Positions 8,802 through 25,822 of a DNA stretch of 64,000 nt are shown here, one piece after another (positions within the stretch are counted from its first letter, which is position 1; each line of letters opens with the position of its first letter). The position numbers were made by a program, and so were the translations under genes. Location: assembly GCA_963810635.1 (NCBI GenBank), contig CAWEOB010000002.1:2320-66319 (forward strand). Reading direction: 5' to 3'. The stretch comes from an uncultured Actinomycetes bacterium (lineage in GTDB: Bacteria; Actinomycetota; UBA4738; HRBIN12). The notes under the pieces were generated by a model. That model was not told the origin of the DNA. It worked only from the letters and a program-made list of their open reading frames with translations, and ran no database searches.

Positions 8802-9515
8802 TCAGGGCCGCTCCAGCACGGTGCCGTCGGTCTGCGCCTTCTCGATCGCGCGAGCCTCCGCATCCGGATTCAGACAGATGTTGTCTTCGAACGGGACCAC
8901 GCTCGAGCTGTAGTCGATCAGGTAGGTCACGATGTCGTTGATCTGCTGATCCGTGAGGGCGCCGGCGTAGCGGATGCTCCACGACGGCATCTGGTTCCGG
9001 CCCTCCCGGATGACCTGATAGATGTCCTCCTCGCGCGCGATCGCAGGGTGAGCGCCGTTCAGGTTGCCTTCGCAGATCGTGGACAGGTTCGGGGGGTACG
9101 CGTACGAGTCGCCCGCCACGATGATGCCGCCCTTCAGCTCGGGTCCGTGGCAACGCGTGCAGCCGACCCCGAGCTGGTTCTCCTCCGTGTAGGGATGCAC
9201 AGCCCGCGAGCCACGATCGAGAGCGAGCGCACGGAGCTCCTCTTCCTGGGCGAGGTTGCGGTCGGGTTCCACCAGCCACTGCAGGGGGAACCACACGACG
9301 AAGAACGCCAGGAGCAGGACGCCCCAGCCCTGGTACCGCTGCAACAGCGGTGTCTCGAGCGCGGCGTCGGACGGACCTGGACGCATGCCGTGCGGGATCT
9401 CGGGCGCCTTGCCGCGAGCCCTGCTCCGGGTGATCAGCGCCCCGATGGACACGAGGATCAGCACCCCACCCAGGACGAGCAGGATGACCCCGGCGATGTT
9501 GCTCTCCGCCAGCAT
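8802..9515 (-). CDS. membrane-anchored monoheme c-type cytochrome
   Basis: The internal start MLAESNIAGVILLVLGG at 9515 is preceded by GGAAGGG. There are two N-terminal TM segments, a single CXXCH (GCTRCHG) and a downstream NQMP candidate Met ligand. Confidence 0.8.
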   Translation of the reverse strand: MLAESNIAGVILLVLGGVLILVSIGALITRSRARGKAPEIPHGMRPGPSDAALETPLLQRYQGWGVLLLAFFVVWFPLQWLVEPDRNLAQEEELRALALDRGSRAVHPYTEENQLGVGCTRCHGPELKGGIIVAGDSYAYPPNLSTICEGNLNGAHPAIAREEDIYQVIREGRNQMPSWSIRYAGALTDQQINDIVTYLIDYSSSVVPFEDNICLNPDAEARAIEKAQTDGTVLERP

Positions 9516-9529
9516 CCCTTCCGGCACCT

Positions 9530-10237
9530 CTATCCCGCCGCCACGCAGAACGGACCCTGCGGAGGCTGATCGATGGTGTTCGTCCCTCTCGGCGGACCCA
9601 GGACGACCTCGGACGTGTCGACCGTGACCAGGTCGCCCTCGATCGTGATCTTGAACCGGTCGAGGCCGCGTGGCGCCGGGCCGAGCTGATACTCGCCCGC
9701 GCCGTTGTACTTCGAGCCGTGGCACGGGCACTCGAACCACTTGGACGAGTTGCAGAACGGGACGCGACAACCGAGGTGGACGCACCGCTGGTAGAGCGGC
9801 ATCAGACCGTCGGTCGCGACCTGTTCCTCCGGGTAGTTCGCCAGCCCTTCGCCCGGCTGACCGTTCCAAGGGACCAGGTAGAAGCGGCCCGCTCCGTTGT
9901 AGACGAACCCCTCGGCGTCGGCCTGTGCCTGGAGCTCGGACAGGTTCCCGGCCGTGATCACCGAGCCGAACCCGCCGCGGAGGTTCGGCCACAGGAACGC
10001 GATGGTGCCGGCACCGAACTCGGCCCCGAACACGAGGACCGACGTGATGAGCGACCGACGGAAGAAGTCGCGACGCGACATGGCGGCGACCGGCTTCGAA
10101 GGTGCGGCGCCCGGCTCGGCCGCCGCCGCCGCCTCCCGTGCTCGCCTGCTCGCCTTCATGGACTGCAGCATGAAGATCGTGACGAACAGGATCACGCCGA
10201 GGAGGGCCAGGATCACCGCGATGGTCGCGTTGCTCAT
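9530..10237 (-). CDS. qcrA: Rieske [2Fe-2S] subunit of the cytochrome bc-type complex
   Basis: [10 protein letters not shown]... at 10237. Tat-like SRRDFFRR motif. Rieske boxes CVHLGCRV and CPCHGSKY. Its start overlaps the stop of the upstream gene by 4 nt. Confidence 0.9.
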
Positions 10238-11064
10238 AGCTCGAAGAACACCCCTTGCGCCCAGGGCCAGATCCAGTTGTAGCCCGGGCCGCGCATGAAC
10301 GAACCGATGATCGTGAGCACCGCGCCGAACGTGAACAGGATGGTGAACATGGTGATCGCGACCTTGCGATCGCCGGGTCGCACGCTCGGGTTGCGGTCGA
10401 CGAAGGGGACGGCGGCCAGCCCGACGAGGATGAACGTGGGGATCGAGATCCCCGCCACCATGGGGTGGAAGTAGCGGAGCAGCTCCTGGAGTCCCAAGAA
10501 GTACCAGGGCGCCTTCGACGGGTTCGGGGTGAGGTTCGGGTTGGCCACCTCGCGGAGCGGGGCGTTGATGAACGTGGAGAACACCAACAGGCCCGCGAAC
10601 AGGATGAGCATGGCCACGAACTCCTCGATCAGGAGGTGCGGCCACACGTTCACGCGGTCGCCCTGCTCGCGCTCGACCCGCTGGATGCCCTCGGGGGGGA
10701 CGAGGGCGAGGAGCCGGTGCTTGTCGGGCGCGCCCTTCTTCGGCGTGGGGAGGTTCCCCGTAGGCAGAGGAGCCTCGCGCTGCGCGGTGGTGACGGTGGG
10801 TGCGGCCGTGGCGACGGCTGTCGCGGCGGGAGCCGCGGCAGCCGCGGGTGCGGCGGACGCGGGAGCTGCAGCTGCTGCCGCGGCGGGCGCCGCGGCAGCA
10901 GCGGGCCGCTCCTCGACCTCGTCGGGGTGCGCGGCACGGTAGCTCCGGATCGCCTTGGACCGCGCGCGGCCCTCGGCGATCCGACGATCCACGCCGGTGG
11001 CCATCTGCGCGTCGAGCTCCTGCTGGTAGATCTCGAGGTCTTTCGGAGAGTCTTCCCAGGTCAT
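10234..11064 (-). CDS. cytochrome b C-terminal-domain protein (subunit IV / PetD-like) with a long Ala/Pro-rich N-terminal extension
   Basis: 276 aa with a [20 protein letters not shown] motif and three TM helices. The N-terminal roughly 110 aa are low complexity ([35 protein letters not shown]). Confidence 0.85.
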
Positions 11065-11072
11065 GTGCGCTC

Positions 11073-11845
11073 CTAGAGAGGGCCCGATACCCGCCGTCCT
11101 TGCGGATCCGCCAGAAGTGGACCGCCAGGAAGATGACCAGCACGAAGGGGAGCGCGAGCACGTGCAAGACGTACCAGCGCAGCAGCGTCTGCGGGCTCAC
11201 GATGGCGCCGCCCAGCAGGAGGAAGTTGGCTTGCTTGGCGATGAACGGCGAGTACCCGGCGAGCGAGGTCCCCACCGTGACCGCCCAGATCGCCAGCTGG
11301 TCCCAAGGGAGCAGGTAGCCGGTGAACGACAGGCCGAGCGTCAGGAACAACAGGACGACCCCGACCACCCAGTTGAACTCGCGCGGCGGCTTGTAGGCGC
11401 CCGTGTAGAAGACACGAGCCATGTGCAACGTGACCGACAGCACCATGAGGTGGGCTCCCCACCGGTGGAGGTTCCGCATCAGATCCCCGAAGAACACACC
11501 GGTGCGGATCGTCTGCATGTCCTGGTACGCGATGGCGCCGCCCAAGTCGGCCATGGGCCGGTAGAAGAACATCAGGAAGATGCCGGTGAGCGTCAGCAGC
11601 ACGAAGAGGAAGAACGAGAGACCACCGAGGCAGAACGTGTAGGTGAGCTTCAAGCCGTGCCGCTTCACCTTCGTGGGGTGCAGGTGGTACAGCACGTTGT
11701 TCATGGTGGCCAGCGCCCGATCGCGCTGCGTGTCCTTGTAGCCCTTCCGGTAGATGGAGCCGGGACGGAAGATGGACTTCCAGACCTCGGTCTCGCGGAG
11801 GCGGTCGCCGACCTGGCTCGGCGACGGCAACTTGATCTTCGCCAC
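11073..11845 (-). CDS. qcrB: cytochrome b6-like subunit (four-helix N-terminal half of cytochrome b), with an apparent 1-nt frameshift near its 3' end (about 11085-11092)
   Basis: GTG 11845 is preceded by GGGGAAGGGGGG. Heme-ligand His pairs occur in [23 protein letters not shown] and [27 protein letters not shown] shift at the GGG run gives ...GG(V)SGPL-stop (TAG at 11075..11073), followed by AGGAG and the ATG of the next gene. Without the shift, the ORF reads through three genes (793-aa artefact). Confidence 0.85.
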
Positions 11846-11943
11846 GTCCCCCCTTCCCCTGGCTACCGGCTGTCCGGCCGCGTCACGTCCGGCTGTATCA
11901 CGTCGGTCCAAGCCCCTCGGTCATCGCGGTTCGTTCCCCTGGA

Positions 11944-12339
11944 TCACTCCGGCGCAGCCTGTGAGGTCGGCACGTCGGCCATGGTGCGCGCTCCACCCGA
12001 CGCCTCGGGCAGTCGCGCATAGTACAGCGTGTCGGTGGGGCAGCGATCGACACAGACGGAGCACCGGGTGCAGGCGTTGTCGTCGACCACGAAGATCGCG
12101 TTGGAAGCTCCGACCTCGGCGCCGACGGCTTCCTCGGCGGCTCCTTCGACGATGTCCGGGGACATCATCCAGATGCAGTTCCACGGGCAGACGTCCTCGC
12201 AGGCCCGGCACAAGATGCAGTTGTCGGGGTCGAGCATGAGATGTTTCGGGGACTTCACGCCCTGGCTGAGCCACGTGACGTCGACGGCCTCGACGACGTA
12301 GTCGTCGTGGATGTCCACCTCGGTCTTGTTGAAGGGCAT
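11944..12339 (-). CDS. 2x[4Fe-4S] ferredoxin-type protein encoded inside the Rieske/cyt b operon
   Basis: 131 aa with two CxxCxxCxxxCP motifs (CILCRACEDVCP, CTRCSVCVDRCP). ATG 12339 is preceded by TAGGAGCGCCG, which includes the stop of the upstream gene. Confidence 0.85.
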   Translation of the reverse strand: MPFNKTEVDIHDDYVVEAVDVTWLSQGVKSPKHLMLDPDNCILCRACEDVCPWNCIWMMSPDIVEGAAEEAVGAEVGASNAIFVVDDNACTRCSVCVDRCPTDTLYYARLPEASGGARTMADVPTSQAAPE

Positions 12340-12948: not shown

Positions 12949-13077
12949 CCGCCCACTATGGCGGCAGGCTGGACCTCAGACAACCCAGCGGGTGCGGGGG
13001 CGACCGCTCCTACACTTGGCATCCGGCGCGGGGCCGGGAGGCGAGGCCCGGCTCAGCCAATGGGACGGTGCGATCGG

Positions 13078-13830
13078 ATGAGGATGGTGCTCGCGGACAC
13101 GGCGAACGTGGCGCAGTGGTGGGCGCCCGCGCTCGCTTTCCTGGCCGGCGCGGTGTCGTTCGCGAGCCCGTGCGTGTTCCCGCTCGTGCCGGGCTACCTG
13201 GCGTTCGTGACCGGCGAGAGCGTCGTGGACGACCCGGTTCCGGCCGAGGGTGCGAAGCGGGTGCGCCTCGTCCCCATCCTCCTGTTCATCGGTGGATTCA
13301 CCCTGGTGTTCACCCTGTACGGCGCCTTCTCCACCACGTTCGTCAAGATCTTCAAGGGGACGGCGGGACAGGCGATCGCCGGGGCGTTCGTGGTGTTCCT
13401 CGGACTCCTCATGGTGGGCTACGGGCTGCGGACGGGACCGCTCGCCCTCTACGCGGAGCGGCGCCCCCTGCTCGAGAGGATCCGGCCCGGATCTGCCGGC
13501 GCGTTCCCCCTCGGGATGGCGTTCGCCGCCGGATGGACGCCGTGCATCGGGCCGGTCCTCGCCGCGATCCTGCTCGTGGCGTCCCAGCAGAGCGCGGGGC
13601 GTGGCGCCTTCCTGCTGATCTGCTACTCCCTCGGGTTGGGCCTCCCGTTCCTCTTGATCGGGGTGGGGATCCAATGGCTGACGGGTGTGCTCACGTGGGT
13701 GAAACGCCACTACGCCACGATCGCGATCGTGTCGGGGGCCCTCCTCGTCGGTGTGGGCGTGCTCCTGATGACGGGCCTCTTCACGCGCTACCTCGTGACG
13801 CCGTTACAACGGTTCGCTCCCCAGCTGTGA
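13078..13830 (+). CDS. ccdA: cytochrome c biogenesis thiol-reductant transporter CcdA
   Basis: Frame of ORF 12958..13830. Contains FLAGAVSFASPCVFPLVPGYLAF and AAGWTPCIGPVLAAIL, the two conserved Cys motifs of the DsbD/CcdA family. Start could be ATG 13078, ATG 13084 or GTG 13087. Confidence 0.88.
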   Translation: MRMVLADTANVAQWWAPALAFLAGAVSFASPCVFPLVPGYLAFVTGESVVDDPVPAEGAKRVRLVPILLFIGGFTLVFTLYGAFSTTFVKIFKGTAGQAIAGAFVVFLGLLMVGYGLRTGPLALYAERRPLLERIRPGSAGAFPLGMAFAAGWTPCIGPVLAAILLVASQQSAGRGAFLLICYSLGLGLPFLLIGVGIQWLTGVLTWVKRHYATIAIVSGALLVGVGVLLMTGLFTRYLVTPLQRFAPQL

Positions 13831-13908
13831 GCATGACCGTGGCAGTGGGACCGCGCGTGGTGTCCCGTGCCGCTCACGCGGACGCTCGCAGTAGCATCCG
13901 AAGACCGC

Positions 13909-15533
13909 ATGGCTCCCTCGGCCCCAACCTCAGCGGCTCGGCCCACGGTCCGGCGCTCCCTCGCCGTGGCGTGGCGGTCCTTGCGCTCGATGCGCACCGC
14001 ACTGATCCTGCTGCTGCTGCTCGCGCTGGCGTCGGTAGCCGGATCCTCCTCCCGCAGATCCCCAACAGCCCCGATCGGGTCGCTCGCTACCTCACGGATC
14101 ACCCCGTCGTCGGTGAGCTGTTCTGGCGTCTCGGCCTGTTCGACGTGTTCGGTTCCTGGTGGTTCGCCCTCATCACGATCCTGCTCTTCGTGTCCCTGAT
14201 CGCGTGCCTCCTCCCGAGGTCGCGCGCGATGGTCCGCACGCTGCGCCAGCGCCCGGTCCAGGCGCGGGAGCTCGACGGGTTCCGTCATGTGGCCGTGCTC
14301 ACCGTCCCCGGCGAGCCCGACGCGGCGGTCGTGACCGCACGCCGCGTGCTGGCCAGACGCTTCTACCGTGTCGAGGCCGCCGCCGACGGGCAGGCGCTCG
14401 CCGCCGACAAGGGAGCCCTCCGTGAGATCGGCAGCCTGGTCTTCCACTGGGCGTTCGTGCTGTTGCTGCTCGGCGTGGTGGTCGGGAAGGGATTCGGGTA
14501 CAGCGGCCGGGCAACGATCGCGGAAGGTCAGACCTGGACCGACGCGGCGGCGAACTACGACCCCCTCTCGCTGCGAGCCGGTCGGTTCTTCGCGGGAGAG
14601 CACACGGGGGTCGGGGTCCGGCTCGTGTCCTTCCGGAACGACTTCCGCGCCAGCGGCGTCCCGATGGACTTCGTCTCCGCGATCCAGGTGCTCGACCCGG
14701 ACGGGAACGTGGTGCGCGACGAAGACGTCCGTGTGAACCACCCGGCCGAGTACGGAGGAATCCGCATCTTCCAGTTCGGGTTCGGATGGGCGCCCGTGGT
14801 CACCGTCGACGACGATGGGGAGGCGATAGCCGACGGGCCGATCGTGATGGGGCAGGCGACCGCTCCGCAGGGTGTGTCGCAGCTCGCGATGCCGTGGCGG
14901 GGCTTCGTGAAGCTCCCCGGGCTCCGGCCGCAGGTCGCCGTCCAGCTGGAGCTGTGGCCCGACAGCGAGGCGTACGTCCGGAGCATCGAGACGGGGATGC
15001 CGCAGCCGATGGTGGGAGAGAACGCTCCGTTCATGCGCTACACGGTCTGGTCCGGCCGGCTCCTGGATCCGTCGCTCGCCGAGCTGGACACGCGGTTCAT
15101 GGAGGAGGTCGGCAGCGGCGTGATCGGTGCCGGGCAGACCGTCGACCTCGGGCACCGGTGTGTGGTCGACGCCCCCGGTGAGGAGCCCGGCGCCTCGTCG
15201 TGCCCTGCGGGCACGACGACCCGCCTCACCATGTCCTTCCCCGATCTGGTCCACTACTCCGTGCTGCAGGTGACGAAGGACGTGGGTGTCCCCATCGTGC
15301 TCGCCGCGGCTATCCTCCTGCTGATGGGGCTCCTGCCCGCCCTCTACACGTCTCGCCGCAAGCTCTGGGTCCGCGCGGAACCTGCCGAGCACGGCACCAC
15401 GTTGCTGATCGGCGGGTTCGCGCTCCAGCGCAAGCCACAGTTCGAGGAGGAGTTCGCATCCGTGGTCGCAGCGATCGCGGAAGCGGCCGGTGGGACGTCG
15501 GCATCGACGCGGGAGATGGTGGGGGCGAGATGA
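13909..15533 (+). CDS. resB: cytochrome c biogenesis protein ResB/CcsB, with an apparent frameshift at 14041-14053
   Basis: The N-terminus (MAPSAPTSAARPTVRRSLAVAWRSLRSMRTALILLLLLALASVAGS) is in ORF 13867... The rest (LLPQIPNSPDRVARYL...WWFALITILLFVSLIAC...HYSVLQVTKD) is in the frame of ORF 12894..15533. The break falls on GGATCCTCC. Confidence 0.85.
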
Positions 15534-16498
15534 CCGAGCTCGAGCTGGCGAGGTGGTCGAAGGACCTCTTCAACGTGGCGCTGTTCGCCTACATCGCGGC
15601 CATGGTGGCCTCGTTCGGGTTCCTCGCCTTCCGGGCGAAGGCGTTGGCGTGGATCTCCACCGGGCTCGGCGTGGCGGGGCTCCTGGCCAACGTGACGTCC
15701 ATCGTGACCCGGGGGATGGCGGCCGGCCGGACCCCGTGGGGCAACATGTACGAGTACTCGGCCGTCCTCGCGGCGTTGATCGTGGTGGCGTACCTGGTCG
15801 GCGTCGAGTGGCGCTCGCACATCCGGGCGTTGGGCGGGTTCGTCTACGCGTTCGTCGTGTTCACGATGGCGATGGCCGTGCAGTTCTTCTACGTGGGGCC
15901 CACGGATCTGCTCCCCGCCCTCAACTCCTACTGGCGCCAGATCCACGTCACCTCGATGATCACGGCGTCCTCGCTCCTGGGGATCGGGTGCGTGTTCACG
16001 ATCCTGTACCTGGTGAAGGACCGATCCGAGACCCGGCAGCTCCGGGCCATCCGCTCACAGGAGCCGCCGCCGATCCTCGGCGGCGCCATCGACGCCGACG
16101 CGGCTGCCGACCTTCCGGCCGACCTGCTGCCGGAGGCAGGCGAACCGGACGCGCCTGCGGCGCATCCGGTTCGCCGCGGCGTCTTGCCGGCGGCCGCCAC
16201 GCTCGACCGGCTGGCGTACCGCTTCATCGCGTTCGGGTTCCCCATCTGGACCTTCGGCACCATCTGCGGCGCGATCTGGGCGCAAGAGGCGTGGGGGCGG
16301 TACTGGGGGTGGGACCCCAAGGAAACGTGGGCGTTCATCACCTGGGTGATCTTCGCCGGCTACCTCCATGCTCGGGCCACCGTGGGTTGGAAGGGACGGC
16401 GGGCCGCGGTGATCGCCCTGGTGGGCTTCGTCAGCTTGTTCGTGACGTACTACGCGGTGAACCTGTGGATCAGCGGTCTGCATTCCTACGCGACGTGA
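15530..16498 (+). CDS. ccsA: cytochrome c-type biogenesis protein CcsA/ResC (heme handling)
   Basis: ATG 15530 overlaps the resB stop (ATGA). Contains the WGRYWGWDPKETWAFITW tryptophan-rich heme-binding motif and multiple TM helices. Confidence 0.9.
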   Translation: MTELELARWSKDLFNVALFAYIAAMVASFGFLAFRAKALAWISTGLGVAGLLANVTSIVTRGMAAGRTPWGNMYEYSAVLAALIVVAYLVGVEWRSHIRALGGFVYAFVVFTMAMAVQFFYVGPTDLLPALNSYWRQIHVTSMITASSLLGIGCVFTILYLVKDRSETRQLRAIRSQEPPPILGGAIDADAAADLPADLLPEAGEPDAPAAHPVRRGVLPAAATLDRLAYRFIAFGFPIWTFGTICGAIWAQEAWGRYWGWDPKETWAFITWVIFAGYLHARATVGWKGRRAAVIALVGFVSLFVTYYAVNLWISGLHSYAT

Positions 16499-16596: not shown

Positions 16597-17707
16597 GTGC
16601 GCAAGCGTTGGTTGTGGGTCTTCGCCCCGTTGGCCCTGACCTTGCTCCTGGCGGCGTGCTCCCAGGCACCCCACCCACAAGACACGATGGACCCGGCGTC
16701 GGACACGGCGCAGAAGCAGAAGGATCCTCCTGATCCCAGTGCTGTGGGTGGCGGGCGTCGTGTTCGTGGTGGTGGAGGGCGGCATCATCCTCATCTCGCT
16801 CCGCTTCCGCCACAAGAAGGATCAAGAGCGGTTGCCGAAGCAGATCCACGGCAACACGCGTCTGGAGGTGGGGTGGACGATCCTCCCGGCCCTCGTCCTG
16901 GCGGGCGTGATGGTGCCCACCATCTCGTTGATCTGGGAGCTGGCCGAGCAGCCGTCGGATGCGCTCCACGTCTCGGCGAAGGGCTACCAATGGTGGTGGG
17001 GGTTCGAGTACACGGACCCCGACATGACGGTCTCGTGGGCCGAGAACGACCCCATCACCACGGCCGACGTCATGGTGGTGCCGCTCGGACGGACGGTGGA
17101 TATCTCGGTCCAGTCGGCGGGCGGCCTCGTGAGCGGCCCCGGTCCCGATGGGGAACCCAATCCCGACCACCAGGTCATCCATTCGTTCTGGGCGCCACGC
17201 TTGTTCGGCAAGCAGGATGCGGTTCCGAACCGGACGAACCACATCGTGTTCACAGCGGAAGAGACCGGCACGTTCCTTGGTCAATGCGCGGAGTTCTGCG
17301 GTCTCCAGCACGGTCGGATGAAGTTCCGGATCGTGGTCCTCGAGCCGGGCGACTGGGACGACTGGGTGGCTGCGAGGAAGCTCCCGGCGGCCGAGCCCAC
17401 CGACGAGCTCGAGCGACGGGGGATGGACCTGTTCCTCAACGGGAAGTTCGCGGCCGGGCAGTGCATCGCGTGCCACACCATCGGTGGCACCGACGCCGCA
17501 GGCATCGGCGGCCCGAACCTGACGCACTTCGCGGCTCCCACCCATGAGTGTTTCGCCGGCTGCGATTGGGAGACGGATGACGTGGAGGCGCTGAAGGCGT
17601 GGCTCCGTGACCCGAACGCAGTGAAGCTCGGTGCGAAGATGCCGGACTATCAGCTCGAAGAAGATGAGATTGATGCCCTGACCGCCTACCTCTTGAGCTT
17701 GACGTGA
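16597..17707 (+). CDS. ctaC: cytochrome c oxidase subunit II with a fused C-terminal cytochrome c domain (caa3-type), with an apparent frameshift at about 16720-16726
   Basis: The lipoprotein-like N-terminus (VRKRWLWVFAPLALTLLLAACS) is in ORF 16579... The body is in ORF 16739..17707, with the CuA site CAEFCGLQHGRM and the heme c site CIACH. The break falls on GGATCC. Confidence 0.9.
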
Positions 17708-17747: not shown

Positions 17748-19619
17748 ATGGCCAGCGTGAGCATGCCTGCTCGGCGCGGAGCCTTCCACCGCCCCACCGC
17801 CACCACCGGGGCGTGGAGCTGGTTGACCACGGTCGACCACAAGAAGATCGGGATCATGTACGGCGTGGCGGGCTTCACCTTCTTCCTGATCGGAGGGGTC
17901 GAGGCCCTGCTGATCCGCGCGCAGCTGGCGCAGCCCGACGGCACGCTGCTGAACGCGGCGGAGTACAACCAGATCTTCACGATGCACGGCGTCACCATGA
18001 TCTTCCTCTTCGTGATGCCCATGGGCGCCGCGTTCTTCAACTACCTGATCCCCCTCATGATCGGGGCTCGTGACGTGGCGTTCCCACGTTTGAACGCCTT
18101 CTCGTTCTGGGCGTTCTCGGCAGGCGCGCTCTTCCTGTACTCGAGCTGGTTCCTCGGTGGGGCGCCGAACGGCGGCTGGTTCGGCTACGCGCCGAACTCG
18201 ACCACCGACCCCACGATCGGCATGTCGTTCTACGCGCTCGGGCTGCTGATCACGGGCGTGGCGTCCACGGTGGGCGCCGTGAACCTCGCCGTGACCGTGA
18301 TCAACATGCGCGCCCCGGGCATGTCGTTGTTCCGGACACCGGTGTTCGTGTGGATGGGCCTCGTGGTGCAGTTCCTGTTGATCTTCTCGCTGCCCATCAT
18401 CACCGTGGCGCTGTTCGAGATGCTCTTCGACCGCCGGTGGGACACCACGTTCTTCGATCCGACCCGGGGTGGCGACCCCGTCCTGTGGCAGCACATGTTC
18501 TGGCTGTTCGGGCACCCCGAGGTCTACATCCTGATCCTGCCGGCGTTCGGGATCTTCTCCGAGGTCCTCCCCGTGTTCAGCCGCAAGCCGCTGTTCGGCT
18601 ACCAGTTCGTGGTCTTCAGCGGGATCGCGATCGGCTTCATCGGGTTCGGCGTGTGGGCGCACCACATGTTCGCGGTGGGGCTCGGCCCGGTTGCCAACAC
18701 GGCGTTCGGGATCTCCACAGCGATCATCGCCGTGCCCACCGGCATCAAGATCTTCAACTGGATGGGGACGATGTACGGCGGGGATATCCGGTTCAGGTCC
18801 GCCATGCTCTTCTCCGTCGGCGGCGTGCTCATGTTCGTGATCGGCGGGCTGTCGGGGGTGACCCATGCCGTCGTGCCGTCGGACTACCAGCAGACCGACA
18901 CCTACTACATCGTGGCGCACTTCCACTACGTGATCTTCGGGGGCGGCGTGTTCGCGTTCTTCTCCGGGATGTTCTATTGGTGGCCGAAGATCTTCGCGCG
19001 GATGCTCAACGAGCGCCTCGGCATCCTCCAGTTCTGGCTGATGGCGATCGGGTTCAACCTCACGTTCGGCCCCATGCACATCCTCGGACTCCAGGGCATG
19101 ATCCGGCGCGAGTACACGTATCCGGAGGGCCTCGGACTGACCTTCTGGAACCAGGTGGCCTCCGTGGGCTCCTTCCTGATCGCCCTCTCGGTCCTGGTGT
19201 TCGTCGTGAACCTGGTCGTCACGCGCCGGAAGCCGAAGGGCCTCGAGAACGAGGACCCGTGGGATGCGCGGACGCTCGAGTGGACCACCTCGTGTCCGCC
19301 CCCCGCCTACAACTTCGAGGAGATCCCCGTCGTCAGCTCGCTCGACGAGTTCTGGCACCGGAAGTACGCCACGGACAAGGAAGGCCGCACGATCCGCGTG
19401 CCCGCGGGTGCCGCTCCTGCCCATGACGACGCCGAGGCGCACGGCGGCGGCCACGGGATCCACCTTCCCAGTCCGTCGTTCTGGCCGCTCATCGTGGCGC
19501 TCGGGCTCCCGATCCTCGCGTACGGTGCCCTGTGGTCGTGGTGGCTGGTGGGGGCCGGCGCGCTGGTCACGGTGATCGGTGCCTACGGATGGGCCCTCGA
19601 GCCCTCGGTGGCGGAGTGA
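17748..19619 (+). CDS. ctaD: cytochrome c oxidase subunit I with a roughly 60-aa two-helix C-terminal extension
   Basis: 623 aa with WLTTVDHKKIGIMYG, GHPEVYILILP and VAHFHYVIFGG motifs. The tail is HGIHLPSPSFWPLIVALGLPILAYGALWSWWLVGAGALVTVIGAYGWALEP. Confidence 0.95.
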   Translation: MASVSMPARRGAFHRPTATTGAWSWLTTVDHKKIGIMYGVAGFTFFLIGGVEALLIRAQLAQPDGTLLNAAEYNQIFTMHGVTMIFLFVMPMGAAFFNYLIPLMIGARDVAFPRLNAFSFWAFSAGALFLYSSWFLGGAPNGGWFGYAPNSTTDPTIGMSFYALGLLITGVASTVGAVNLAVTVINMRAPGMSLFRTPVFVWMGLVVQFLLIFSLPIITVALFEMLFDRRWDTTFFDPTRGGDPVLWQHMFWLFGHPEVYILILPAFGIFSEVLPVFSRKPLFGYQFVVFSGIAIGFIGFGVWAHHMFAVGLGPVANTAFGISTAIIAVPTGIKIFNWMGTMYGGDIRFRSAMLFSVGGVLMFVIGGLSGVTHAVVPSDYQQTDTYYIVAHFHYVIFGGGVFAFFSGMFYWWPKIFARMLNERLGILQFWLMAIGFNLTFGPMHILGLQGMIRREYTYPEGLGLTFWNQVASVGSFLIALSVLVFVVNLVVTRRKPKGLENEDPWDARTLEWTTSCPPPAYNFEEIPVVSSLDEFWHRKYATDKEGRTIRVPAGAAPAHDDAEAHGGGHGIHLPSPSFWPLIVALGLPILAYGALWSWWLVGAGALVTVIGAYGWALEPSVAE

Positions 19620-19624
19620 GCCGG

Positions 19625-20233
19625 ATGGCCGACACCACGATCCTGAGCCCGGACGAGCACACCACCACCGGGCTCCCCAGCACCAAGATCGCCATGTGGT
19701 TGTTCCTCGCGTCGGAGTGCTTGCTGTTCGGCGCGCTGATCACCGCGTACGTGCTGTACCGGGGCGCCAGCGAGACGGGTCCCTACCCCGCCGACATCTT
19801 CGACATCGGCTACACCTCCGTGTCGTCGTTCGTCTTGCTGGCGAGCTCGCTCACGATGGTGCTGTCCCTGGTAGCGGCCGAGAAGCGCGACTTCGCCCGG
19901 ATGCGCGTCTGGCTCCTCGCCACCGCGTTCCTCGGCCTGTCGTTCGTGGGCGGCCAGGTCTACGAGTTCACGACCTTCTACGGCGAGGGGCTGGCGATCA
20001 CCACGAACCTGTTCGGGACCACGTTCTACGTCCTGACCGGCTTCCACGGGGTCCACGTGACGGTGGGCATCCTCATGCTCTTGTCGCTCGTGGGCATGTC
20101 GTGGTCCGGGCGGATGCCGGACGACGTGGCGTTCCCGGTGGAGATGGTGGGCCTCTACTGGCACTTCGTGGACGTGGTGTGGATCGTGATCTTCGTGGTC
20201 GTCTACCTGATCCCGACACCCAACCCGGCCTGA
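19625..20233 (+). CDS. ctaE: cytochrome c oxidase subunit III
   Basis: MADTTIL... at 19625. FYVLTGFHGVHVTVGILML and YWHFVDVVWIVIF motifs. Confidence 0.9.
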   Translation: MADTTILSPDEHTTTGLPSTKIAMWLFLASECLLFGALITAYVLYRGASETGPYPADIFDIGYTSVSSFVLLASSLTMVLSLVAAEKRDFARMRVWLLATAFLGLSFVGGQVYEFTTFYGEGLAITTNLFGTTFYVLTGFHGVHVTVGILMLLSLVGMSWSGRMPDDVAFPVEMVGLYWHFVDVVWIVIFVVVYLIPTPNPA

Positions 20234-20255: not shown

Positions 20256-20615
20256 ATGGGGCAGAAGCTGGACGAGTTCCACGAGGAAGCGGGGGAACGA
20301 GGCATCGCGGATCCCCGTGAGGCGCACGCCCCGCACAAGCAGCATCCGAGCGCCAAGGAGTACATCCGGATCGGCATCATCCTGGCGTTCCTGACGGGCT
20401 TCGAGGTCTGGTTGAGCTACTCGGACGTCCGCGGCGGGCTCCTCGTGGGCCTGCTCGTGGCCACCATGATCACCAAGTTCTCGCTCGTGGCGATGTGGTT
20501 CATGCACCTGCGGTTCGACGATCGACGCTACTCGCGGTTCTTCCTGATCGGACTCGCGCTGGCCGCCACGCTTTACTTGATCGTCCTCCTCCTCTTCCAG
20601 GTGTGGCAGACCTGA
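20256..20615 (+). CDS. ctaF: cytochrome c oxidase subunit IV (prokaryotic COX4 / Bacillus CtaF type)
   Basis: 119 aa with three TM helices and a KFSLVAMWFMHLRFD motif. Its position after ctaE supports the call. Confidence 0.7.
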   Translation: MGQKLDEFHEEAGERGIADPREAHAPHKQHPSAKEYIRIGIILAFLTGFEVWLSYSDVRGGLLVGLLVATMITKFSLVAMWFMHLRFDDRRYSRFFLIGLALAATLYLIVLLLFQVWQT

Positions 20616-20617
20616 TC

Positions 20618-21448
20618 ATGGGCGCCCTTCCCTGGCACGCGCACGCCGACGTCTGGTTCGTCTTCATCTCGCTCAGCGCCGCGTATCTGGTGGCGTGCCG
20701 CCGGCACCTCGCTCGGACCGGCGAGGTCACACCGCGGAAGCGGAAGGTCTTGTTCCTGGGCGGCGTCGGCCTCCTGTGGCTGGCGTCCGACTGGCCGATC
20801 CATGACCTCGCCGAGCAGCGCCTGTACTCCGTGCACATGGTGCAGCACATGCTCTACACGCTCGTCGCCGCTCCGCTCCTGATCACGGGAACACCGGCGT
20901 GGCTCTGGCGGAACATCGTGTCGCCTCGCCCGCTCCGTGTCGTCTTCCGCTTCCTGACGCGGCCCCTCGTGGCGTTGCTGTTCTTCAACAGTGTCCTGCT
21001 CTTCACGCACTGGCCGGCGGTCGTGGCGGCTTCCGTGGGATCCGAGCTCACCCACTTCCTGCTCCACGTGCTCGTGGTCGGGTCGGCCGTGTGCATGTGG
21101 TGGCCCGTGGTCTCCCCGCTCGCGGAGATGCCGGCGCTCTCACCGCCGGGGCAGATGATCTACCTGTTCCTGCAGTCGCTCGCGCCCACGATCCCGGCGT
21201 CGTTCCTGACCTTCGGCCGGTCGCCGCTCTACCCCGTCTACGAGGCCTTCCCCCGGATCTGGGGTATCACGGCGCTGAACGACCAGCTGATGGCCGGGCT
21301 GATCATGAAGCTGATCGGCGGCTTCATCCTCTGGGGCGTGATCGCGTTCGTGTTCTTCAGGTGGGCGGCGCGGGAGCAGCGTGGGGGATGGGACGAATCG
21401 GCGTGGCGCAACGTCGACCGCGAGGTCCACGCGGAGCTGCGCCGGTGA
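20618..21448 (+). CDS. ctaG: cytochrome c oxidase assembly factor CtaG (Bacillus caa3_CtaG type membrane protein)
   Basis: ATG 20618. Multi-TM protein with HMVQHMLYTLVAAPLLITG and WWPVVSP motifs. It follows ctaF directly. Confidence 0.7.
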   Translation: MGALPWHAHADVWFVFISLSAAYLVACRRHLARTGEVTPRKRKVLFLGGVGLLWLASDWPIHDLAEQRLYSVHMVQHMLYTLVAAPLLITGTPAWLWRNIVSPRPLRVVFRFLTRPLVALLFFNSVLLFTHWPAVVAASVGSELTHFLLHVLVVGSAVCMWWPVVSPLAEMPALSPPGQMIYLFLQSLAPTIPASFLTFGRSPLYPVYEAFPRIWGITALNDQLMAGLIMKLIGGFILWGVIAFVFFRWAAREQRGGWDESAWRNVDREVHAELRR

Positions 21449-22434
21449 CCGATCGCTCCCCGTCCCCGCGCGTTGCCCTGCTCCCGGCGATCGTGATCCC
21501 GCTCGTCTGCCTCGTGTTCATCGGGATCGTCCTGTGGACGTTCTCGCGCGTGCTCCTCCAGCTCAGCCACATCGCCGCCACCGCCACCGCACTGGCGGTA
21601 GCCGTCGGCATCCTGGCGGTCGCCGCGTTCGTGGCCAGTCGCAAACAGGTCGGGAGCGGCGCGGTGTTCTCCATGATCGGTGGGGTCTTCGGTGTCACCA
21701 TGCTCGCGGGCGGCATCGCTCTGCTCGTGGGGCAGCCGAGCGAAGGGGGCGGGGAGGCCGTGGTCGTGGCGATCGCCGCACCTGAGGGTGCCGCCACGAA
21801 CGGCTACAGCACCACCACGCTCAACGCGCCGGCCAACGTGGCCTTCACGATCGCGTTCGACAACGAGGATCCGGGGATCCAGCACAACGTGTCGATCGCG
21901 GAGGAGGAGGGCGCGCCGCCCATCTTCGAAGGGACACTCGTGGCCGGCCCGATACAGACCGAGTACCCCATCGAGCCGCTCCCACCCGCGGACTACTTCT
22001 TCTTCTGCACGGCCCACCCCACCGTGATGACGGGAACCCTGACGGTGGCCGAGGGCACCGAGCCCGGCGGTGGAGGTGGGGGCGGGGGTCCGCCCACCAT
22101 CGTGGCGAAGAGCCTGGCGTTCGACACGGACACCCTCTCGTTGCCCGCGGATGCCGAGTCCCCGCTGGTGTTCGACAACGAGGACCCGGGGACGCAGCAC
22201 AACCTCTCGATCTACACGGACGACACCGTCACCGACCAGCTCTTCGAAGGGGAGCTCGTCACCGGGGTCGCGGAGCAGACGTACACCATCCCGCCGCTCG
22301 CCGCTGGCGAGTACTACTTCCGGTGCGACGTCCACACGAACATGAACGGCACCGTGGTCGTGGAGGCACCTGCGGGTGGAGGGGGCGGCGCCGGTGGCGG
22401 CGGTCCGCCGTCCGGGTCACCACCGGGGGGATGA
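21445..22434 (+). CDS. membrane-anchored protein with two tandem cupredoxin (type-1 copper) domains
   Basis: GTG 21445 overlaps the ctaG stop (GTGA). There are three N-terminal TM helices. Two repeats each carry DNEDPG-x-QHN ... C-x2-H-x2/3-M (FFCTAHPTVMTG; FRCDVHTNMNG). A poly-Gly linker and tail are present. Confidence 0.8.
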   Translation: MTDRSPSPRVALLPAIVIPLVCLVFIGIVLWTFSRVLLQLSHIAATATALAVAVGILAVAAFVASRKQVGSGAVFSMIGGVFGVTMLAGGIALLVGQPSEGGGEAVVVAIAAPEGAATNGYSTTTLNAPANVAFTIAFDNEDPGIQHNVSIAEEEGAPPIFEGTLVAGPIQTEYPIEPLPPADYFFFCTAHPTVMTGTLTVAEGTEPGGGGGGGGPPTIVAKSLAFDTDTLSLPADAESPLVFDNEDPGTQHNLSIYTDDTVTDQLFEGELVTGVAEQTYTIPPLAAGEYYFRCDVHTNMNGTVVVEAPAGGGGGAGGGGPPSGSPPGG

Positions 22435-22435
22435 G

Positions 22436-22981
22436 GTGGCGCGTCCGCGGCGATCGCCTGCGGGTCTGGTGGCAGCCCCCGTCCTGATCGCCTTGCTGGC
22501 GGCGTGCACCGGGGGATCCACCGAGACCGGCACCACCTCGGTCCAGCGCGTCTCGGAGCCGCTGCCACTGCTCGAAGGGAAGGCCGTCGACGGCGACGCC
22601 ACCTTGTCCACGGCCGACCATGCGGGCGAGGTGTTGGTCCTGAACGTCTGGGCCTCGTGGTGCGCTCCGTGCGAAGAGGAGATGCCCGAGCTCGTCCGCG
22701 TCGCCGAACGCTACGAGAACCGCGGCGTGACGTTCCTGGGCATCAACCACACGGATCAGCTCGCGAGCGCGCGGACCTTCGCGCGGCGCTACCGCGTGCC
22801 GTACGACAGCTTCCACGACGACGCCGGCCGGTTCGCAGCCAAGCTGGGCTACCTCGGGCTCCCGGATACCTACGTGGTCGATGCCGGTGGGACGATCCGT
22901 TTCGCGATCAACGGACCCACGACCGAAGCGGAGCTGTCCGGCCTGCTCGATGAGGTCCTCGCGGAGGGCGGCGGGACCTGA
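22436..22981 (+). CDS. TlpA/ResA-family thiol-disulfide oxidoreductase lipoprotein (cytochrome maturation)
   Basis: Lipobox LIALLAACTGG. Thioredoxin motif NVWASWCAPCEEEMP. Confidence 0.85.
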   Translation: MARPRRSPAGLVAAPVLIALLAACTGGSTETGTTSVQRVSEPLPLLEGKAVDGDATLSTADHAGEVLVLNVWASWCAPCEEEMPELVRVAERYENRGVTFLGINHTDQLASARTFARRYRVPYDSFHDDAGRFAAKLGYLGLPDTYVVDAGGTIRFAINGPTTEAELSGLLDEVLAEGGGT

Positions 22982-23009: not shown

Positions 23010-24848
23010 TCAGACGACGGCGTCCACGGCGATCGCGCCGAACAGGGCGGCGAGGTAGATCACCGAGTACTTGAAGAGGCCCCACGCCCGATCGTCGCTC
23101 GGCGATCGCCACAGGATGAGCGCCCGGTAGACGAACGCGCCGCCGAGGACGAGCGCGGTCGCGAGGTACACGGGACCCATGGAGGCCACGGGTACGAGCA
23201 ACAGCGTGACCCCGAACAGCACGAGCGAGTACAGGAAGATCTGGCGCCGGGTCTCGTCGTCGCCCCGCACGACCGGCATCATGGGGATCCCGGCGGTGGC
23301 GTAGTCGTCCTGGACCCGCATGGCCAGCGCCCAGAAGTGCGGCGGCGTCCAGACGAAGACCACGGCGAACAGGACCAGGGCAGGCCATGCGAGGGTCCCC
23401 GTTACCGCCGCCCACCCGACCAGCACGGGGACCGCGCCAGCCGCGCCGCCGATCACGATGTTCTGGTCGGTGGAGCGCTTCAGCCACATCGTGTAGACGA
23501 AGACGTAGAAGGCGATGGCCGCGAGCGCCAGGATCGCCGCGAGCACGTTCACCGTGAGGGCGAGGAAGGCGAACGAGACGGCGCCGAGCACGAACCCGAA
23601 CCGCAAGGCGTGCTCCGGGGTCACCTGGTGGCTGGGGAGGGGGCGCTGCCGGGTGCGCCGCATGACCTCGTCGATGTCGCGGTCCAGGTACATGTTGATC
23701 GCGTTGGCCGAGCCGGCGGCGAGGGTGCCGCCGATGAGGGTGGCGAGGATCAGCCAGATGGACGGGACGCCGGCCGCCGCCAGCATCATCGCGGGCACGG
23801 TGGTGATCAGGAGCAGGACGATGATCCGGGGCTTCGTGAGCGCGAGGTAGGCGCGCGCCGCGTCGCGGAGCGACGCGGCGGGCGCCGGGGCGGTGGCCCG
23901 CTGACCGGCCGCGTCGCCGGCCTCGGCCGGCGACGCGGCCTCCCCCGTCCGGGGTTCGTGCCGAGCCGCCACCGCGAGGGCAACCACCGTGCTCCAGATC
24001 AACGCCGACATGGCCACGTGACCCGCCTGGGGGACCGTGGCGAGCTCGGTCACCACGTTGAGGCCACCCAGGATGACCTGACCCACGACGAACACGGCCG
24101 CGAGCGTGGAGAGGTTCACGAGGATCCGCGAGCGGGGCCGCATGGCGCGGGCCCGGATCGCGAGCCAGAGCACCAGGGCGGTCACGACGAGCGCGAGCCC
24201 TCGGTGCACGAACATCTCCATCGCTCCCGTGACCACGAGGGACGGCACCAGCCGGCCGCCCATCAGGGGCCAGTCGCGGAACGCGAGCCCGGCCCCCTCG
24301 GCGCGCACGTAGGTGCCCACCAGCAGGAGGGCGTACGTAGCCGCCACCGTCCAGGCGGCGAGCCGGGCGAAGCCCGGGTCGGCGGCGGGACGGTCGCCGA
24401 GGTAGGCGAGCGCCGTGATCACCACGGTCGCGGCGAGCGCGATGAACGCCACGGCGAAATGGACGGTGACCACGCGGGGGTCGAGGTCCGAGAGCACGAC
24501 CCAGCCTCCGAGCGCTCCCTGCACGGCGAAGAGGGGGGCGAGGCCGACGGCCAGCCAGGCCGCCGCGGCGGGCACGGGGAGCGCGGTCCCACTCCACCGA
24601 TGGCGGAGCAGCATGACGATCGCGACGATCGCGAGCCCGATCGAGAGACCCCCGCTCAGGACCGCCAGCGCGCGATGCAGGTACTCGATGAGGGTGTGGT
24701 ACTCGACGCGCGGCACCCACGAGCCGAAGCAGCGTGGCCAGTCCGGGCACCCGTCCCCGGACCCGGTTGCGCGGACGATGCCGCCCCACGCGATCAGGAG
24801 CAGCGTCGAGGCGGTGGTGGCGACGGCGAGCCGGCGGAATGCCTTCAT
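23010..24848 (-). CDS. fused heme A synthase (CtaA/COX15) - heme O synthase (CtaB, protoheme IX farnesyltransferase)
   Basis: Start MKAFRRLAVATT at 24848. The N-terminal half carries GDGCPDWPRCFG and His-containing helices (CtaA). After an Ala-rich linker, the C-terminal half carries LTKPRIIVLLLITT, NMYLDRDIDEVMRRTRQRPL and WTPPHFWALA (CtaB). Confidence 0.88.
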   Translation of the reverse strand: MKAFRRLAVATTASTLLLIAWGGIVRATGSGDGCPDWPRCFGSWVPRVEYHTLIEYLHRALAVLSGGLSIGLAIVAIVMLLRHRWSGTALPVPAAAAWLAVGLAPLFAVQGALGGWVVLSDLDPRVVTVHFAVAFIALAATVVITALAYLGDRPAADPGFARLAAWTVAATYALLLVGTYVRAEGAGLAFRDWPLMGGRLVPSLVVTGAMEMFVHRGLALVVTALVLWLAIRARAMRPRSRILVNLSTLAAVFVVGQVILGGLNVVTELATVPQAGHVAMSALIWSTVVALAVAARHEPRTGEAASPAEAGDAAGQRATAPAPAASLRDAARAYLALTKPRIIVLLLITTVPAMMLAAAGVPSIWLILATLIGGTLAAGSANAINMYLDRDIDEVMRRTRQRPLPSHQVTPEHALRFGFVLGAVSFAFLALTVNVLAAILALAAIAFYVFVYTMWLKRSTDQNIVIGGAAGAVPVLVGWAAVTGTLAWPALVLFAVVFVWTPPHFWALAMRVQDDYATAGIPMMPVVRGDDETRRQIFLYSLVLFGVTLLLVPVASMGPVYLATALVLGGAFVYRALILWRSPSDDRAWGLFKYSVIYLAALFGAIAVDAVV

Positions 24849-24945
24849 GGGGTGGGTGCGGCGGTCGGGCCATGATACCGGCGGCCGATCGTCGACACGC
24901 CCGGGGCACCTCGCCCGCCACGGGCCTTGCGATACTGGCCCCACG

Positions 24946-25822
24946 ATGACGGCTGGGATCTCGGACGCCTCGGGGCTGCTGCTCCTGCGGGACCGGGTGG
25001 ACGACGTCCTCCGCGAGTTCCTGGAGGCGCGCCGTCTCGAGCTCGGCTGGATCGACCCCCACGCCGTCGAGCCGCTCGACGAGCTGATCGGCCTCATCGA
25101 GGCCGGCGGCAAGCGCCTGCGTCCGGCCTTCTGCTACTGGGGGTTCCGCGCCGGGGGAGGCGAGGACGGCGAACCGATCCTGCTCGCGGCGGCATCCTTC
25201 GAGCTCTTGCACACCATGGCGCTGATCCACGACGACGTCATGGACGGGACGGCGATGCGACGGAACCGGCCTGCGACCCACGTGCGCCAGGCGGAAGCCG
25301 CGGCGGGCCGTGGCGTCCCCGAATCCGGAGCGGGTCGGCGCCGCCGTCGCCATCCTGGCCGGGGATCTCGCTGCCGTCCTCGCCGACCAGCTCCTCTTGG
25401 AGGCGGGCTTCCCGCCCGAGCGGCTCGCCGCCGCGCTCGCTCGCTATCATCGGATGCGTCTCGAGATGGCGGCGGGCCAGTTCCTGGACCTGACCGATGC
25501 CGACGCCGACGCGCGTCGCCTGGCCTTCCTCAAGGGAGGGTCGTACACGGTGCTCGGGCCGCTGCTGGTGGGCGCAGGGCTGGCCGGCGCGCCCGAGGAC
25601 GTGGAGACATGTCTGCGCCGCTTCGGCGAACCGCTCGGGCAAGCGTTCCAACTCCTCGACGATCTGCGGGATGAGGACGGCGTCGGCGGGGTCACACTCG
25701 ACGACGTGCGCGCCTTGGTGGGCGACGCGACGTCGGCGCTCGACCCGGCCGTGCTCGGGGCGGCCGCTGCGCAAGCGCTCGCGACCCTGACCGAGCTCGC
25801 GATGGGAGCCGAGGCTCGGTGA
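24946..25822 (+). CDS. short-chain polyprenyl diphosphate synthase (FPP/GGPP synthase-like), with an apparent frameshift around 25295-25330
   Basis: The first Asp-rich motif (LIHDDVMD) is in the frame of ORF 24415... The AILAGDL and second motif (FQLLDDLRDE) are in ORF 25310..25822. Confidence 0.8.

Follow-up and report, generated by a model that had tools for sequence, protein, structure and literature searches.

A membrane-anchored tandem cupredoxin encoded in the caa3 oxidase gene cluster of uncultured Actinomycetota: a candidate tethered electron carrier

Introduction

Membrane blue copper proteins that replace cytochrome c as the link or entry at a terminal oxidase are known from archaea with few c-type cytochromes, in the form of halocyanin in haloarchaea and of sulfocyanin (SoxE) in the SoxM supercomplex of Sulfolobus. 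The textbook example of respiration that dispenses with a mobile carrier comes from Actinobacteria, where a dihaem cytochrome forms the bridge within the bcc-aa3 supercomplex. Here we describe Cup (protein P0001), a membrane-anchored protein with two cupredoxin domains in tandem, the gene of which (cup) overlaps the end of ctaG in the caa3-type oxidase gene cluster of an uncultured Actinomycetes bacterium (Actinomycetota; UBA4738; HRBIN12). The stretch of DNA that was analysed, the window, comprises 64,000 nucleotides (positions 2,320 to 66,319 of contig CAWEOB010000002.1, assembly GCA_963810635.1), and coordinates given without a locus or contig name refer to it. Cup is a real, conserved feature. 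It probably serves the caa3 branch as a membrane-tethered, copper-based carrier of electrons or as an entry module, acting between a b6c-type complex III and caa3, and by analogy its function would be akin to that of auracyanin, halocyanin, sulfocyanin and AcoP.

In bacteria, auracyanins A and B of Chloroflexus aurantiacus and the auracyanin of Roseiflexus are membrane-tethered type-1 copper proteins as well, and their presumed task is to link a quinol oxidoreductase with a terminal electron acceptor. Auracyanins differ from Cup in having a single domain (20-24% identity to Cup) held by a lipid or a single helix instead of a three-helix module, in being encoded outside a cta operon, and in having alternative complex III as their partner where Cup would have b6c; their ligand loop is C-x4-H-x4-M. 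Halocyanin and SoxE are archaeal single-domain proteins with an anchor different from that of Cup, and the SoxE Pfam model matches a few Cup-family members and misses Cup itself. The amicyanin of Paracoccus has the same short loop as the second Cup repeat (C-x2-H-x2-M) but, unlike Cup, is a soluble, periplasmic, single-domain protein dedicated to methylamine dehydrogenase. Tethered haem carriers are found in single-membrane bacteria, where the membrane-bound cytochromes c550 and c551 of Bacillus connect menaquinol:cytochrome c reductase with aa3 and caa3 oxidases. These cytochromes, and the dihaem QcrC that forms the two-centre bridge in the actinobacterial bcc-aa3 (PMC5040959), are functional analogues of Cup but are haem-based and not homologous to it.

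AcoP is a membrane-anchored cupredoxin that is encoded inside a cytochrome c oxidase operon and is regarded as a partner of the oxidase (PMC4059628, PMC10804444, 10.1101/2020.03.01.968255). It consists of a single domain with a green copper site, is 17% identical to Cup and lacks tandem repeats; its gene precedes coxB in an operon for acidophilic iron oxidation in a Gram-negative host, and there is no kinship with Cup at the sequence level. Literature searches returned no paper on the Cup family, the nearest being those on AcoP, or 'Cup', of the Acidithiobacillus COX operons and reviews of oxidase assembly. The family is undescribed and large, and many of its members come from soil.

Architecture of Cup

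The gene, its junction with ctaG and the parts of the encoded protein are as follows; pLDDT stands for the predicted local distance difference test score of AlphaFold2.

21445..22434, plus strand: cup, encoding a 329-amino acid membrane-anchored tandem type-1 cupredoxin; the frame is open, with no stops
21433..21448, plus strand: coupling junction, with a GGAG Shine-Dalgarno sequence at 21433-21436, 8 nucleotides before the GTG start at 21445-21447
21478..21732, plus strand: three-helix membrane anchor, residues 12-96, from AlphaFold2 helices; carries the FSRVLL motif (S34, R35) and R66
21754..22053, plus strand: cupredoxin repeat 1, residues 104-203
21883-21885, 22006-22008, 22015-22017, 22027-22029: predicted copper ligands of repeat 1 (H147, C188, H191 and M195, respectively)
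22054..22092, plus strand: Gly-rich inter-domain tether GTEPGGGGGGGGPP, from the sequence and from pLDDT below 50 at residues 205-213
22093..22368, plus strand: cupredoxin repeat 2, residues 217-308
22198-22200, 22324-22326, 22333-22335, 22342-22344: predicted copper ligands of repeat 2 (H252, C294, H297 and M300, respectively)
22369..22434, plus strand: Gly/Pro-rich C-terminal tail and stop codon, aligning with the linker between repeats 2 and 3 of three-repeat relatives

A first-pass annotation of this DNA had read the open reading frame as three transmembrane helices followed by two cupredoxins, separated by a poly-Gly linker and each with a complete set of type-1 copper ligands, and all of this is borne out. 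The AlphaFold2 model, built with 17 homologues, has helices at residues 12-37, 42-64 and 71-96 and two beta-sandwich domains with a block pLDDT of 92-98, the Gly-rich segments between them being of low confidence. Pfam agrees with the model: Cupredoxin_1 (PF13473) matches Cup in two stretches with an E-value of 2.5e-18 (66.4 bits against a cut-off of 27), and Copper-bind (PF00127) also passes its cut-off (29.3 bits against 21.2). In repeat 1 the upstream ligand, H147, lies within DNEDPGIQHN and the loop reads C188-x2-H191-x3-M195, while in repeat 2 H252 lies within DNEDPGTQHN and the loop reads C294-x2-H297-x2-M300. All eight ligands are invariant across 17 diverse homologues that are 46-85% identical (alignment A1), and the ligand set is likewise invariant in an alignment of 35 single repeats (A2). 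Outside the anchor, Cup contains four His and two Cys in total, and all six are ligands; inspection of the sequence of the soluble part found no His/Met-rich tail or region and no other metal-binding motif. Judged from sequence and model, the Greek-key beta-sandwich fold with one upstream His and a C-terminal Cys-His-Met loop places Cup in the class of type-1 cupredoxins, and its copper binding and redox potential are predictions from these ligand sets.

A single-domain AlphaFold2 model of repeat 2 (pLDDT 97.1, eight strands) was compared with solved structures using Foldseek; it resembles auracyanin with a TM-score of 0.80 (6kol, 1qhq), AcoP with 0.77 and amicyanin with 0.71, and rusticyanin and plastocyanin are also among the matches. 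The best sequence match among solved structures, weak as it is (E 0.13), is the amicyanin of Paracoccus versutus, in which the four ligands of repeat 2 pair one-to-one with H54, C93, H96 and M99, which we take to be their counterparts; the ligand alignment thus agrees with the first-pass assignment.

The anchor is conserved as well, with R9, P19, S34, R35, L37, L38 and R66 invariant in the A1 homologues. Positive charges at residues 4, 9, 66 and 67 would place the N-terminus inside and the C-terminus outside the cell, and the conserved polar residues R9, S34, R35 and R66 suggest that the anchor docks to a partner complex.

Several named identities were tried and rejected. The amicyanin model (TIGR02657) gives 25.3 bits against a cut-off of 110.2, and there are no mau genes in the conserved block; the plastocyanin model (TIGR02656), which corresponds to the name given to homologues by JGI, gives 19.5 bits against 87.85. 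Auracyanin is a structural likeness only, given that Cup has two domains and the loop C-x2-H-x2/3-M. PCuAC (PF04314) has no match at E-values up to 1, and its H(M)x10Mx21HxM site (motif as in PMC9145763) is absent. For Sco1/SenC (PF02630), which has a thioredoxin fold with CxxxC and His, there is no Pfam match, and the fold of Cup is that of a cupredoxin. When the whole Cup model was used as the Foldseek query, two-domain laccases and the nitrite reductase NirK came out on top (E ~1e-11), which would make Cup a two-domain multicopper oxidase or nitrite-reductase-like enzyme. We give this reading next to no credence. The matches have a root-mean-square deviation of 11-16 Å and TM-scores of 0.2-0.3 and are an artefact, because both partners simply have two cupredoxin domains; those of Cup are of ~100 amino acids each and joined by a disordered tether. 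The identity is ruled out by the four His outside the anchor, all of them type-1 ligands, and by the lack of HxH type-2/type-3 sites.

Cupredoxins fused to oxidase subunit II

A related domain is found covalently attached to the oxidase itself. In a genome of the same order (G130), a 348-amino acid CtaC (L086:4316-5362, minus strand) consists of COX2 with a C-terminal Cupredoxin_1 domain that has the full ligand set; the gene sits in a second oxidase cluster, and the cupredoxin occupies the position of the caa3 cytochrome c domain. At least 250 protein clusters have this COX2-cupredoxin architecture, all annotated as cytochrome c oxidase subunit II, and adjacent CtaC and Cup matches indicate the same fusion in further families (genomes G088, G235 and G176). 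In a tree of cupredoxin repeats, the fused domains group together with support of 100/100, and their clade falls inside the radiation of Cup repeats. Searches of the literature found no description of an oxidase with a cupredoxin-fused subunit II. Because the fused domain is permanently attached to the CuA subunit, a role as a chaperone is very unlikely, and by analogy this is the form that an electron-entry domain would be expected to take.

Directly upstream of the fusion ctaC, L086:5367-6203 (minus strand) encodes a 278-amino acid predicted lipoprotein, the C-terminal part of which is cupredoxin-like (…PGHYFFACWQ…); it has no Pfam match.

The Cup family

A protein search for homologues of Cup recovered at least 633 clusters at E-values up to 1e-3, named, if at all, 'plastocyanin' (JGI) or 'cupredoxin domain-containing protein' (NCBI), with one 'hypothetical protein'. 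Among the 120 best homologues, three complete Cys-His-Met loops are found in 111, two in 8 and one in 1, the last of which looks frameshifted. The end of Cup falls inside the linker between repeats 2 and 3 of the three-repeat forms (alignment A1). The same 329-amino acid two-repeat form, with the same ending, recurs in P0004 and P0013, protein records that are distinct from Cup and stem from other contigs, and a genome of the same genus (G014) retains three repeats (locus L088); for these reasons, the two-repeat form is a real, recent loss of repeat 3 in the Cup sublineage and not an assembly artefact. Cup is therefore a reduced form of a mostly three-repeat family, a point that goes beyond the first-pass annotation. 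In the repeat tree, repeat-1 copies mostly cluster together, repeats 2 and 3 are mixed in one clade (93/89), and the small cupredoxins that this genome encodes besides Cup fall outside the set of Cup repeats, with a split supported at 99/94.

When one genome of each species was scanned, relatives turned up in 520 stretches, every one of them from an Actinomycetota metagenome-assembled genome, and the synteny was inspected in the best 80 of the 520. In ~70 of these 80 loci, the order is ccdA-resB-resC-ctaC-D-E-F-G-cup-tlpA, followed by ctaAB on the opposite strand, a reductase gene and nuoA. The ten exceptional loci, in which the match is confined to the cupredoxin part and located elsewhere, are paralogues. 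Stop and start codons of ctaG and cup overlap by 4 nucleotides in 46 of 67 related loci, the others having gaps of up to 52 nucleotides, and because this same overlap recurs, the arrangement of cup is not due to chance. In a 301-genome sample of the phylum, the family of the source organism is represented by 17 genomes, the source genome among them, and each has a Cup orthologue.

One further homologue, P0003 (397 amino acids, 88% identical), has the C-terminal part of CtaG in frame with Cup, either because the two are truly fused or because the assembly is off by one base at the GTGA junction.

The anchor module and its single-repeat relatives

We define the Cup module here as a three-helix anchor with FSR(V/I)LL, followed by one to three type-1 domains, the gene for which comes immediately behind ctaG or ctaF in a caa3-type operon; Cup has this anchor, these domains and this position. 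The anchor alone (residues 1-100), searched against 1.84 billion representative proteins, gave 95 matches, of which 88 were scanned for cargo. Cupredoxin, present in 50 of the 88, is the sole recurrent cargo; other Pfam matches are isolated, with one or two members each.

The module extends beyond the reach of Cup itself as a query. In families without a match to P0001, the gene after ctaG still encodes a protein of 217-233 amino acids with an FSR(I/V)LL-type anchor and one cupredoxin. At three loci of other families (L083-L085), the gene after ctaG combines a similar anchor with one cupredoxin, and tlpA lies upstream on the opposite strand; in the Egicoccus family (L092, L096), there is no ctaG at the locus and the anchored cupredoxin directly follows ctaF. 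Since the gene stays when tlpA has moved or ctaG is absent, it is linked to the structural cta genes, and to judge from these loci the constant neighbour of the module is the ctaCDEF(G) block rather than tlpA. Several single-repeat proteins have an azurin-like ligand loop, C-x4-H-x4-M. Cultured carriers of the module are Egibacter rhizosphaerae (ER308_01045, WP_131153291.1) and Egicoccus sp. AB-alg6-2 (WP_373667354.1), which in the genome sample are kin of the source organism at the level of the phylum only; in a pairwise comparison, the Egibacter anchor is 44% identical to Cup residues 31-69 (E 4e-6).

At two loci (L095 and L098, families f21 and f60), an unrelated small protein of 112-152 amino acids is encoded after ctaG in place of the anchored cupredoxin. 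It ends in ...P(Q/L)PHLR(E/D)HL...V(D/E)... and is lipoprotein-like in L098, where it has no Pfam match.

The surrounding respiratory gene cluster

In the window, cup is part of a respiratory supercluster that comprises the following features.

8805..12339, minus strand: b6c-type complex III operon (Pfam Fer4, Cytochrome_B, Cytochrom_B_C, Rieske, Cytochrom_C)
12958..16498, plus strand: ccdA, resB and resC, System II cytochrome c maturation (Pfam DsbD_TM, ResB, Cytochrom_C_asm)
16739-17707, plus strand: ctaC, COX2 and cytochrome c domain (Pfam)
17748-19619, plus strand: ctaD (Pfam)
19532-20233, plus strand: ctaE (Pfam)
20256-20615, plus strand: ctaF (Pfam)
20612..21448, plus strand: ctaG, Caa3_CtaG-type oxidase assembly factor (PF09678, E 1e-48); the longest open reading frame runs from 20495
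22376..22981, plus strand: tlpA/resA-like thiol:disulfide oxidoreductase lipoprotein with lipobox LAAC and WCAPC (Pfam AhpC-TSA, Redoxin, Thioredoxin)
23010..25112, minus strand: fused ctaA-ctaB, heme A and heme O synthase (Pfam COX15-CtaA and UbiA)

The maturation genes stand at the head of the same gene string as the cta genes. As annotated in the first pass, the GTG start of cup overlaps the TGA stop of ctaG (21446-21448) as GTGA, a TlpA/ResA thioredoxin follows, and subunit II has a cytochrome c domain of its own. Cup is probably cotranscribed with the caa3 cluster and translationally coupled, and the true start of the tlpA/resA-like gene is likely the GTG at 22436, 1 nucleotide past the cup stop codon. 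The ctaA-ctaB gene is convergent with the cta string and is followed on the plus strand by genes for a prenyl synthase and a geranylgeranyl-reductase-like flavoprotein and by nuo genes. CtaA-CtaB is a single 700-amino acid open reading frame, and the position of the fusion is kept in nearly all related loci.

The b6c operon encodes a 2x[4Fe-4S] ferredoxin, a split cytochrome b, a Rieske protein and a membrane-anchored monoheme cytochrome c (8805-9515). It physically adjoins the cta string here and also in L043, L048 and L058.

Respiratory branches and copper proteins of the genome

In the source genome (2.96 Mb, 82% complete), class-I cytochrome c domains are confined to three proteins: CtaC, the monoheme subunit of b6c and a dihaem protein similar to QcrC. 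A small cytochrome c, free or of lipoprotein type, that could join b6c and caa3 was not found in this 82% complete genome. The dihaem protein, which has a C-terminal helix, is encoded on contig C5 (~130.6-137.4 kb) in the cluster ctaG (minus strand), ctaE, the dihaem cytochrome c gene, ctaC and ctaD. The CtaC encoded there lacks a cytochrome c domain, and the ctaG is the second copy in the genome. By its gene content this cluster is a canonical actinobacterial bcc-aa3 set, so that the organism has two complex III/IV branches, a further point beyond the first-pass annotation.

Some nine further Cupredoxin_1 proteins are encoded in the genome. One of them (C6:143154-145046, plus strand) is predicted to be a lipoprotein; its 631 amino acids comprise a large N-terminal domain, a C-terminal cupredoxin and a poly-Gly tail, and in the repeat tree no paralogue is closer to the Cup repeats than this cupredoxin. 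The genome also encodes a multicopper-oxidase-like protein with an extra N-terminal cupredoxin domain (C1:268062-270503, minus strand), another sign of a copper-rich extracytoplasmic redox set.

Two rival explanations draw on this inventory. The first holds that Cup is a fixed electron-entry subunit of caa3 which is fed by donors other than b6c, such as exported cupredoxins, copper enzymes or dehydrogenases; the nine or so further cupredoxins, which include a multicopper oxidase and the 631-amino acid lipoprotein, would be at hand as donors, and the conserved polar residues of the anchor would suit a stably docked subunit. We consider this unlikely. The conserved block encodes no candidate donor enzyme, the b6c operon is next to the cta string at the four loci named above, and 83 of the 86 genomes with Cup-type matches in the phylum sample also have the b6c cytochrome c subunit (82 have CtaC), counts that are raw, ignore kinship and include paralogues among the Cup-type matches. 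The second, which we regard as highly improbable, is that Cup is a cell-surface protein of copper tolerance or buffering, encoded in the cta operon by happenstance. CopI is an exported cupredoxin with type-1-like ligands, and an organism with so many cupredoxins evidently handles much copper; there are, however, no cop or cus genes nearby, the synteny with oxidase genes is strict in hundreds of species, and Cup has no His/Met-rich region.

Proposed roles: tethered electron carrier or biogenesis factor

In the role that we favour, the two type-1 copper domains would sit on the outside of the membrane, connected to the three-helix anchor by flexible, Gly-rich tethers, repeat 1 near the membrane on a short tether and repeat 2 on a Gly-rich tether of 14 residues; in a single-membrane bacterium, an untethered carrier would be lost. 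We infer that electrons come from the b6c-type menaquinol oxidoreductase, encoded 9 kb upstream, by way of its membrane-anchored monoheme cytochrome c, and go to the cytochrome c/CuA entry of CtaC. The anchor would dock on the oxidase or on a b6c-caa3 supercomplex instead of floating freely, and electrons may hop from domain to domain, or each domain may be a separate carrier at high local concentration.

Several lines of evidence argue for the carrier role: every repeat keeps the canonical His/Cys/His/Met set, repeat 2 is nearest in structure to dedicated electron carriers, the synteny is tight and linked to the structural cta genes, and a related domain is fused to subunit II in place of cytochrome c. 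In addition, no free cytochrome c is left in the genome for the step from b6c to caa3, and Cup-type matches accompany the b6c subunit in nearly all carrier genomes, with kinship ignored. Of the two roles suggested in the first pass, the evidence favours electron shuttling from the bc-type complex, through its monoheme cytochrome c, to the oxidase, the transfer itself being inferred. An additional carrier had there been called unexpected next to a subunit II with its own cytochrome c domain, which does not hold: an external donor serves the caa3 oxidase of Thermus (cytochrome c552), that of Bacillus (the membrane-bound c550/c551 or the bc complex) and that of Rhodothermus (HiPIP), so the fused cytochrome c is an entry domain and no substitute for such a donor.

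The same annotation had offered copper delivery to CuA as an alternative role. Cup would then be an oxidase biogenesis factor together with CtaG, which serves CuB, and TlpA, which reduces the CuA cysteines, and would deliver copper to, or adjust the redox state of, the CuA site of CtaC. The slot of cup between ctaG and tlpA and the coupling of its start to the ctaG stop suit such a role, and copper handlers with a cupredoxin fold exist: CupA and CopI are examples, and PCuAC is another (PMC9145763). Moreover, Sco and PCuAC were undetected in the source genome, and across 26 genomes of the Cup family Sco was found in 4 and PCuAC in 1, while every examined genome of that family has at least one CuA oxidase, which raises the question of how CuA is assembled there. 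The sites of Cup, on the other hand, are canonical buried type-1 sites, whereas known chaperones have exposed Met/His or Cys/Met sites; Cup has neither the H(M)x10Mx21HxM motif nor a His/Met-rich tail, and no His or Cys to spare outside the anchor. It is difficult to see why a chaperone would have two or three intact redox sites in tandem, the same type of domain is permanently fused to subunit II in the clusters described above, and cup remains with ctaCDEF where tlpA or ctaG has moved or is absent. Copper delivery is thus weakened, chiefly by the buried sites and the subunit II fusions, and we think a dedicated biogenesis factor improbable; the scarcity of Sco and PCuAC keeps this role under consideration. 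A narrower variant, of which we are more doubtful still, is that in lineages without Sco and PCuAC the CtaG-coupled type-1 chain itself loads or redox-conditions the CuA copper, possibly besides electron transfer. Were this true, CuA loading would give canonical blue-copper sites a part in biogenesis that they are not known to have.

Four points weigh against a carrier between b6c and caa3. The cup gene lies between two assembly genes, ctaG and tlpA, and is coupled to ctaG instead of ctaC. Since b6c and caa3 each have a cytochrome c domain, direct transfer between the two within a supercomplex could make a carrier unnecessary. No haem or cytochrome c cargo was found on the Cup-type anchor among the 95 matches (88 scanned), and a swap of cytochrome c for cupredoxin, which would have spoken most clearly for a carrier, is thus not seen on this module. 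Finally, as most Cup-family genomes lack a recognisable Sco or PCuAC, another protein must metallate CuA.

Perspectives

It is important to point out what is new at this locus: the family of subunit II fusions and its placement in the repeat tree, the members in Egibacter and Egicoccus, the scarcity of Sco and PCuAC, the presence of a bcc-aa3 set in the same genome and the recent loss of repeat 3 in the Cup sublineage. A very large group of Actinomycetota would, in addition to the carrier-free supercomplex known from the phylum, have a second branch made up of a b6c-type complex, caa3 and a dedicated tethered chain of one to three blue-copper centres. If the carrier role of Cup is true, this would be a replacement of haem by copper, in the place of cytochrome c, in a Gram-positive phylum, and it would provide a natural case of tandem tethered redox domains, the number of which is one, two or three among close relatives. 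It would also mean that the respiration of abundant soil bacteria is tied to the supply of copper.

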